Below are positions 6,001-9,000 of a DNA stretch of 30,127 nt, piece after piece; within the stretch, counting starts at the first letter, position 1, and each line of letters opens with the position of its first letter. Made by a program: the position numbers. This stretch comes from a virus (lineage: Duplodnaviria; Heunggongvirae; Uroviricota; Caudoviricetes). The stretch lies in IMG/VR virus record IMGVR_UViG_2778260991_000005, positions 1 through 30,127 of that record; one strand, given 5' to 3'.

Positions 6001-9000
6001 ACCGTTCAGCATACGCCAGACTGTGCCGTCCATAATCGCGATATTGATGGTGCCGGAAGCGAAATCGCAGTACGCATCCAGATCATGCGTCGGATCGAAA
6101 GTGTCAGCATTCTGCTGTGACCATTCGCGTCCGCCAGCCTGCGTAATGTTATTGGTGTCAGAACGTCCAAAATCCACTTCCACCGTCTCAAACTGCTCGC
6201 CGCTCATGGTGTATTTACCCTGCAGAACGGCACTGACCGCCTGCATTTCTTCCACCTGCACAATCGCCTGCTCTTCCTGTTTCAGGTTGTCCGTCAGAAT
6301 ACGCAGACGGCGGTAAGCCGGGTCATTAAGGCGGGCCGGATCTTCTCCCGGAAGACGTTCCACTGCCTGCTGATAATCAAAGCGGTGTTTGGGTTTTACA
6401 TAACCGGGACGTAACACGCGGGTTTCACCACCACGGCTGCGCAGCACTTTGCCTGACACCACCGGAGACACATACGCCGCAACCGGTGTTTTGCCGGTAA
6501 TTTTATCCAGCATGACTTCCTGAGTATGGAAAGTGATCGTGCGACGAAAGAACAGCTCCAGAAACAGCGCACGAAATTTCACTTTCTGCTCGGTGTACCC
6601 GAGTAACTGACGCGTGGTAAATAACCCCATAATTTATTTTCCTTCAGAAACACAAACGGGCCGCATCGCGACCCGTTTTTTCAGTCAATCACTTCACCAT
6701 CAGGCGTGGCTGATGGCACTTCCCACAAATGCGTTGGCTTTTTTCACCGCATCCACAGAGTCAGGCCAGACCAGCGACTCAGTGGCAAACGTACCGCTTT
6801 TGTAGTACGTCAGTGTGGGTTCTGTTCCGGCAAGCGCCAGAGCCAGCACGCCCACTGCCGTTCCGGCTTTCTGACCATCCCATGCCACCAGTTTGCCGGT
6901 GGCGTCATCCAGCATCAGTGGCGTCAGTGCAGGCGTGGCAGCACTGATACCACTGGTGGCGGTTGCAGTATGCGCCGGATCGCTTCCGGCAAAAATATGC
7001 ACATCCGCGCGCTTTTCCGTGGTGGTTTTAATCATTTTTCAGTCTCCTGATTTATCTGAATTCCGGATATCGCTTACGGCATACTCATCAGCAGATCTTC
7101 TTCTCCGTGCCCGGCAGTTCCGCCACCGGAAACCGCACTGGCAGCATGCTGTGCCATAAAGCGATCAAAAAGAGTTTCCTGTGACGGTTGCGATGCCGCC
7201 GGCGCGGCTGCCAGCAGCGTTTTCGCCTGCGCCACCGTCATTCCTGGCTGTTCTGTCAGTGCCTGTGCAAGTTGTTCGCGCCCTTTCGCCTCCGGCAGCG
7301 CCATAATCTGCTCGCCGACACTTGCAGAACCCGCAACCGGTGCCGCCGCCAGTAACGTTTTGGCCTGGTCAACGGTCATTCCCGGCTGTTCAGCCAGCGC
7401 CTGCGCGAGTTGTTCACGCCCTTTTGCTTCTGGTAACGCCATAATCTGATCGCCTGTGCCTGCAGCACCGGCAGCAGGGACTGCCGCCAGAAACGCTTTC
7501 GCCTGCGCCACCGTCATCCCCGGTTGACCTGCCAGCATCTGTGCCAGTTGCTCACGCCCCTTTGCTTCCGGCAGCGCCATAATCTGATCACCCGTGCTGT
7601 CAGTACCGGCAACCGGCGCAGCAGCCAGCAACATTTTCGCCTGCTCAACCGTCATTCCAGGTTGACCTGCCAGCATTTGCGCCAGTTGCTCGCGCCCTTT
7701 CGCCTCCTGACAATTCAGGATCCCCATCACGCGCTGATTTTCCTGGGCCACCGCTTCAGCAACGGTGAGATTTTTAACAGTCATTGCATTCTCCTTCGTA
7801 ACAGAGTCATTCAGTGCAGAAACCATCACTTCAACGGCATCTGCAGCATTAATCAGTTGATCAGCCAGGCCTGCATCAATGCCTGCCTGACCGTCATAAA
7901 CGGCAGCCTCGGTATTCATCACCGCCTCTGAACTCAGCCCCGTATAAAGCGCCACCTTGTCGACAAACATCCGGCGGGCCTCATCAATACGGCGCTGAAA
8001 ATCTGCACGCACACCTGCCGGCAATGCCTGAATACTGTTGCCGTCAACCTTGTGCTGCCCGGAGTAAATCAGCGTGATGTCCACCCCTTCCTGTGCCAGT
8101 TGTTTCTCGTAACTGGTGTGCGCCATCATCACGCCAATCGAACCAATTTTTGCCGTCTGCGTGACCAGCCGACGGGTACAGGCTGCCGCCAGCAACATGG
8201 CGGCTGAACAGGCCATGTCATTACACAGCGCCCACACGGGCTTCTGTTCCCGCAGACGGTAAATCATGTCAGCACAGTCAAACGCCCCGGCAGCCTGACC
8301 GCCCGGGCTGTCGATATCCAGCAAAATGCCGCGCACATCCGGATCATTCACCGCCATCTGAAGGCGGGCCGTCAGGCCGTCATAGCCAGTCATGCCGGAG
8401 TAAGGCCGCAGGGTACCCAGTTTATGCACCAGCGTGCCGCTCACCGGCAGAATGGCGATGCCATTCTTCACCTGGTAACTCTTTGCCGGACGCTGACCGC
8501 CCGCCATATAGTCAGTCACAGCCAGTTGCATACCATCAGCATCAAGCTGAACAGCCTGCTGAGGAACGGCAAGGCTGCCGGCCCCCATCTCTTTACCCAG
8601 CGCGCAAAAGAAAACCCGCGCATAGGCGGGTTCCAGTAAAAGCGGCTCATTAAATGCCATGGCGGCAATATGCGATAAATTACGACGCATCGCCTTTTTC
8701 TCCCGTTGTCTGTCGGATCTGCTGCTGAAACGTGTCCTTTATCCAGATGGGGCGGGGAAGACCCGCTGCCTGTCGCTCCTGGCTTTCACGCAGTTGCTGG
8801 CGGAAAATCTCCTGATAGTCATCGCCCATCAGGGCCAGCTCTTTCTCGTACGTGCTTAAACCACCTTCAATACGCATCACCGCTTCCTGCACTTCCTTAA
8901 GGCCATCAATCGCCATGCGACCGGCACCAATCCACTCGGCACGACACCATCCGGAACGGGCCTCCCAGAATGAAAAACGGGATTTCGGCGGGCGGATCAC

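Follow-up and report, generated by a model that had tools for sequence, protein, structure and literature searches.

How many copies of its core motif does a lambda-type scaffold carry, and what would additional copies do? The question is raised by a gene in a 30,127-nucleotide stretch of an E. coli Shiga-toxin prophage (IMG/VR record IMGVR_UViG_2778260991_000005, positions 1 to 30,127; hereafter the window). A sequence-only reading had noted there a gpC homolog with four tandem copies of a motif that lambda has once, in its Nu3 scaffold region, and had suggested that such an expansion is unusual and may alter the stoichiometry of capsid assembly. The gene and its parts are arranged as follows.

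7074..8690, minus strand: gpC/gp5-type head maturation protease-scaffold gene (ORF, 538 aa)
7821..8255, minus strand: S49 (SppA-like) serine peptidase domain (Pfam, aa 146-290)
7791..7796, minus strand: Shine-Dalgarno AAGGAG of the putative nested scaffold ORF (sequence read)
7074..7784, minus strand: putative nested Nu3/gp6-like scaffold ORF, 236 aa (ATG 7784..7782), spanning all four units
7599..7736, minus strand: repeat unit R1, aa 319-364, preceded by a longer N-terminal helix
7461..7598, minus strand: repeat unit R2, aa 365-410
7323..7460, minus strand: repeat unit R3, aa 411-456
7185..7322, minus strand: repeat unit R4, aa 457-502
7077..7184, minus strand: C-terminal tail common to protease and scaffold, aa 503-538 (...LFDRFMAQH...LLMSMP)

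The identity of the gene as a gpC homolog was borne out by its protease domain and by its surroundings. Pfam Peptidase_S49 (PF01343) matches aa 146-290 with E = 1.7e-33, and a search of PDB sequences returned SppA (3rst/4kwb, E about 1e-16) for the protease domain and no other related solved structure. The serine motif NDMxCS has its counterpart in lambda C in the alignment, and its serine is presumably the catalytic residue. The whole protein matches PHROG 53, head maturation protease (E = 1e-216, four matched stretches), and its C-terminal part PHROG 8399, head scaffolding protein (E = 4e-50, 4 matched stretches). By tblastn it is 54-69% identical to phage 21 gp5, Gifsy-1 gpC and lambda C; in a search of 50,697 phage records, phage 21 gp5 and its close relatives came out best together with Gifsy-1, with protein identities of 65-70%, and none of these records matched the 538-aa protein over its full length. 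The STEC309 homolog WP_096934546.1, named S49 family peptidase, has a 100% identical gene within a head/tail region that is 99.2% identical. As in the lambda C/Nu3 type, the gene sits between the portal gene (8680..10251) and the decoration and major capsid genes (D-like 6700..7035, E-like 5602..6630), all on the minus strand, in the order terminase, portal, gene 7074..8690, gpD-like decoration, gpE-like capsid, FI, FII. The large terminase ORF (10461-12419, 652 aa) is intact in the window and annotated as frameshifted in STEC309.

The repeats themselves proved real, and a self-comparison that could have exposed them as a misreading gave a strong signal. In the window, Tandem Repeats Finder picked out one strong array; it spans 7199-7707 and has a period of 138, 3.7 copies, 78% matches, 0 indels and a score of 540, and a repeat search found 236-nt copies at a spacing of 138/138. 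Identity in register at lag 138 was 0.725, compared with 0.318 +/- 0.022 in 2,000 codon shuffles (z = 18), and no other lag within the gene exceeded 0.33. In the translated 538-aa protein the EAKGREQLAQ starts fall at aa 329, 375, 421 and 467, an exact 46-aa period, and a unit HMM finds four domains (aa 324-359, 367-405, 413-451 and 459-497). The array thus consists of four in-frame 138-bp (46-aa) units at 7185..7736 on the minus strand, essentially where it had been placed at first (7200-7760). All four HMM matches keep the invariant columns of the conserved scaffold motif I..xEAxGRExLAxxLAxxPGMTVxxAxxxLAAAP, and R1 is nearest to Tri1, the first of the corresponding boxes of phage 21, and to the single lambda unit. 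Pfam gave sub-threshold chance matches only on the repeat region. A plus-strand ORF running antisense across the array (7524..7931) was rejected as spurious, as the synonymous/non-synonymous pattern fits the minus frame.

A putative internal Nu3-like translation start, looked for on the suggestion of the earlier reading, is present in the nucleotide sequence. The minus-strand sequence directly upstream of the array is acgAAGGAGaatgcaATG, that is, a consensus Shine-Dalgarno followed after 6 nt by an in-frame ATG (AAGGAG, ATG 7784). In the alignment the nested Met falls on the start annotated for phage 21 gene 6, where the record also has a ribosome-binding site, and an SD-like purine run precedes the aligned ATG by 5-8 nt in 8/8 homologs compared, including phage 21 and lambda. 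One frame would thus yield both a 538-aa protease-scaffold fusion and a 236-aa scaffold. Because the nested start lies upstream of the array, all four units belong to the scaffold part, common to the protease and the nested scaffold; of the two locations originally proposed for the repeats, the scaffold therefore stands, whereas the protease domain (aa 146-290) contains none. In lambda the aligned start is codon 309 (AGGAGG + ATG), which would give a 131-aa product and matches PHROG scaffold families of roughly 130 aa, while RefSeq places the nu3 start at codon 239 of C (NC_001416). Codon 239 lacks an SD and is not conserved in relatives, ATT standing in its place in both the window and phage 21, and the RefSeq annotation of lambda nu3 may therefore use the wrong start.

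Judged by sequence and anatomy, the window region is a member of the family formed by lambda C/Nu3 and phage 21 gp5/gp6; in lambda and in P2 (gpO), protease and scaffold are likewise encoded in one gene (PMC8508860). The closest known counterpart is phage 21 gene 5/gene 6 (M81255.1), which shares with the window the gene order, the S49 protease, the nested SD and ATG, the same tandem motif in the scaffold part and then the same type of C-terminal tail, with about 69% identity between gp5 and the window protein over aa 1-444. It differs in having three units, annotated Tri1 box, Tri box and Tri3 box with 'function unknown' (M81255.1), where the window has four, so that gp5 and gp6 measure 501 aa and 200 aa against 538 aa and 236 aa. 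As read from the listed unit sequences, the phage 21 units are more diverged from one another than are R2-R4 of the window, and at the nucleotide level no megablast alignment between the two extends beyond R1. The Gifsy-1 gpC homolog STM2605 and related S49 peptidases of Salmonella and E. coli prophages have the same architecture with three units, the Gifsy-1 gpC tail ending ...SIPGTSAT. Lambda gpC/gpNu3 has a homologous protease, a same-frame nested scaffold and the same motif (ILNCEEAHGREEQARVLAETPGMTVKTARRILAAAP), but one unit, a 36-aa insertion before it and a different tail with a short related end. The motif is the conserved one of the Nu3 region, present once in lambda (gpC aa 364-400) and four times in the window; lambda C, which might itself have proved to carry four copies, has a single one.

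The number of units varies from 1 to 5 among related prophages, and among enterobacterial lambda-like heads the repeat expansion seen here is not exceptional. In 5,426 complete E. coli genomes the lambda-type one-unit form was found in 3,201, the phage-21-type three-unit form in 1,864 and the window-type four-unit form in 105, at least 3 of which (STEC313, STEC307 and STEC308) have five units in an allele of 584 aa. Four and five units thus coexist in the window lineage, and four are kept across alleles ranging from 100% down to about 82-86% nucleotide identity (RM11911 538 aa, OkiPb01676 535 aa, A34 546 aa). Beyond E. coli, the unit profile matched 1,960 proteins among 1.84 billion cluster representatives, and nearly all of the best 150 of these had one matched stretch, indicating that a single copy is the family norm. 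Among 47 loci in species-representative genomes, 42 had one unit, 1 had two (Bradyrhizobium sp. SSUT77), 4 had three, all in Enterobacterales (Trabulsiella, E. coli, Shigella and Providencia), and none had four or more; outside Enterobacterales nearly all relatives have one unit. Two-unit forms also occur in E. coli/Salmonella entries and in a 469-aa S49 protease-scaffold protein (P0131). The supposition that repeat expansion is unusual therefore holds for the family, where one copy is the norm, but not for its enterobacterial members: phage 21 and Gifsy-1 have three, as do 1,864 of the 5,426 genomes, and three copies are a common, long-annotated enterobacterial form. Four and five copies belong to a minority E. 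coli lineage for which we found no earlier description; a literature search on Tri boxes, repeat variation in Nu3-type scaffolds and lambda procapsid scaffold structures returned nothing specific. With the three-copy form known for decades, the window gene represents a modest new copy-number variant.

To consider what a unit might be as a protein, we turned to predicted structures. AlphaFold2, given 67 homologs, modelled the 236-aa nested protein as 13 short helices with a mean pLDDT of 72.6 and a pTM of 0.29, the latter indicating folded beads, units without fixed mutual orientation; the C-terminal tail, with pLDDT <50, is predicted to be disordered. A single 41-aa unit, modelled from a 21-sequence alignment, reached a pLDDT of 89.5 and a pTM of 0.62 with three helices (residues 2-5, 14-21 and 28-37), and the unit is thus predicted to be a small three-helix module, probably folding independently. 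Lambda Nu3 is intrinsically disordered according to the title of a paper cited in PMC11565965, and the modelled fold of the unit may exist only in the bound state. Sequence and fold searches found no solved structure for the Nu3 region, nor any significant structural similarity of the unit to the domain with which P22-type scaffolds bind the coat.

The account we consider probable, though with some reserve, is that of a scaffold built like beads on a string: its four binding modules would be equivalent, and unequal recombination would alter their number. Each unit is a copy of the conserved core of the Nu3-type scaffold family, and a flexible chain would present the same binding surface on every one of them. 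Their likely partner is the major capsid protein, at its inner face, so that several capsid-binding units per chain would make the scaffold multivalent. The number of copies changes as units recombine unequally or convert one another, and every unit is kept functional by selection. Docking of the unit on the capsid is suggested by three considerations. The unit is the scaffold element kept family-wide. In lambda, yeast two-hybrid assays gave Nu3-E, Nu3-Nu3 and Nu3-C interactions, and Nu3, which forms multimers, is required for incorporation of the portal (gpB) (PMC3224144). By analogy, the scaffolds of P22, SPP1, phi29 and 80alpha bind coat protein through C-terminal helix-turn-helix modules (PMC11565965). 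The likeness to the P22 gp8 type is one of function alone, in that a helical module near the C terminus docks on the coat (PMC11565965); gp8 has no sequence or significant fold similarity to the window scaffold, carries one module per chain with multivalency achieved through oligomerisation, and comes with no protease.

As the chief alternative, the partner might instead be the scaffold itself or the portal/protease initiator complex, or the units might act as spacers, with the shared C-terminal tail docking on the capsid protein. The same lambda work lends this some weight, since Nu3 multimerises and is needed to incorporate gpB (PMC3224144); moreover the tail (FxxFM...LLMSMP) is also conserved in the window, phage 21 and Gifsy-1, and both regions are common to protease and scaffold, so that either could serve as a targeting signal. 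We nevertheless regard this arrangement as unlikely, if worth keeping in mind. Only the unit is kept across the 1,960 relatives and lambda, whose tail is largely different, a comparison biased by the fact that the profile was built on the unit, and the two-hybrid interaction between Nu3 and E, for which no region was mapped, argues in the same direction (PMC3224144).

The extra copies might also be neutral expansions of a flexible, disposable scaffold segment, arising by slippage or unequal crossing-over and tolerated as the scaffold is degraded after assembly. Relatives carry anything from 1 to 5 units, and prophages with each of these numbers are apparently viable, as such drift would lead one to expect; some alleles also show recent duplication and conversion. 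The pattern of substitution between the units makes this quite improbable. The 46-codon units of the window are 64-78% identical in nucleotides, that is, 22-36% of nucleotides differ, while a 37-residue core is far better kept at the protein level. Between units the core has pN 0.03-0.19, pS 0.48-0.69 and dN/dS 0.02-0.28, the extreme being R3-R4 with a pN of 0.03 against a pS of 0.69. At identical residues the same codon is used 96 times, compared with 82 expected from independent draws (z = 2.2), which indicates that synonymous sites are essentially randomised, and in register no two units match exactly over more than 21 nt. All units retain the invariant and near-invariant residues of the family, except for A21T in R4. 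Low dN/dS in the core at near-saturated synonymous sites, together with the retained invariant residues, indicates that each unit is individually maintained, and the units are under strong purifying selection. The persistence of four copies across alleles 14-18% apart in nucleotides likewise speaks against neutrality, as does the three-unit form, whose length was constant across 40 sampled genomes (92-100% identity) apart from one shortened record. Selection for codon divergence as such, which could suppress recombination, was considered and found unsupported, same-codon use being at or slightly above random (96 vs 82). That the repeat is an artefact of assembly or reading has a negligible chance, given an identical 1,617-bp gene in five independent complete genomes, the four-unit type in 105 of 5,426, an intact frame and a nucleotide difference of 22-36%, which collapsed or duplicated reads would not be expected to show.

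Exchange between units is still going on in other alleles, as their sequences show. Units R2-R4 of A34 are 95-98% identical to one another, and R2 and R3 are 92% identical in RM11911 and 95% in STEC313. The last value points to a recent duplication as the origin of the fifth unit, and R4 and R5 of STEC313 are 98% and 100% identical to R3 and R4 of the window. No part of the head module has diverged as far between close alleles as the array and its preceding linker: STEC313 and the window are 99.5-99.7% identical in the flanks, 92% in the array and 88% in the linker, a divergence consistent with frequent intragenic conversion or reshuffling. Among near-identical prophages, window positions 7185-7820 form the fastest-diverging stretch of the head module, and the protein sequence of the unit is conserved.

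The prophage has further features of its own. Its head genes, of lambda type (Nu1/A/W/B/C/D/E/FI/FII order), adjoin contractile-tail genes of P2/Mu type, at 1-4082 (minus strand) in the window and at 10005-22828 of SA53-3 L057, where the order is baseplate V, W/gp25, J and I, then sheath, tube, tape measure, X and D; this Stx prophage, whose integration site is ompW, is a mosaic of head and tail modules. In SA53-3 (NZ_CP076279.1 1437145-1447900) an insert of about 10.7 kb lies between the head-tail joining and baseplate genes of an otherwise near-identical prophage. It encodes an integrase, BRO-N, an Icd-like protein, RepA helicase and SSB, as well as its own major capsid and decoration proteins and small terminase, and looks like a capsid-forming phage satellite inside a prophage. 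A Shiga toxin A subunit gene (RIP domain, 20245..21240) lies on the minus strand together with stxB, and downstream of stx follow, on the same strand, a subtilase-cytotoxin-like S8 peptidase (16336..17367) and AB5 binding-subunit genes (15906..16316). RefSeq names in the region matching 15906-21240 are Stx2a A, Stx2 B, S8 family peptidase and two subtilase-family AB5 binding subunits. The whole 5.6-kb toxin segment occurs in only 3/5,426 complete E. coli genomes, SA53-3 (buffalo), P393-F10 (human) and O8:H28 BMH-17-0027 (flour), and literature searches brought up no clear account of a prophage with both Stx2a and SubAB. A perfect 9-nt tandem repeat, ACAAACAAT, is present in 13.3 copies with 100% matches at 25631-25750; it follows an A-rich tract, and this part of the early region is rich in AT.

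An effect on capsid size is unlikely: the capsid protein, at 342 aa, is lambda-sized, and the SA53-3 prophage at ompW measures about 50 kb without the inserted element of roughly 10.7 kb, so that a larger capsid was rejected as the role of the extra unit. The earlier suggestion that extra units may alter assembly stoichiometry is plausible. In its most specific form, which we put forward tentatively and as possible rather than probable, the protein would be a valency-tunable modular scaffold in which each 40-aa three-helix unit is one capsid docking site and alleles with 1-5 units are tuned by unequal recombination. The ratio of scaffold to coat, or the kinetics of assembly, would then be adjusted through the number of units, and under selection the units would stay nearly identical as protein even as their codons diverged. 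In practical terms the impact is small: many genomes already have the gene under the name of S49 peptidase, and there is no sign of a new function. To our knowledge, little is known about the contacts that lambda-type scaffolds make with the shell. Copy numbers of one to five for the only module conserved family-wide, in head gene sets that are otherwise homologous and T=7-sized, provide an easy genetic handle here, a natural valency series that would be useful for testing the role of the Nu3 core module.
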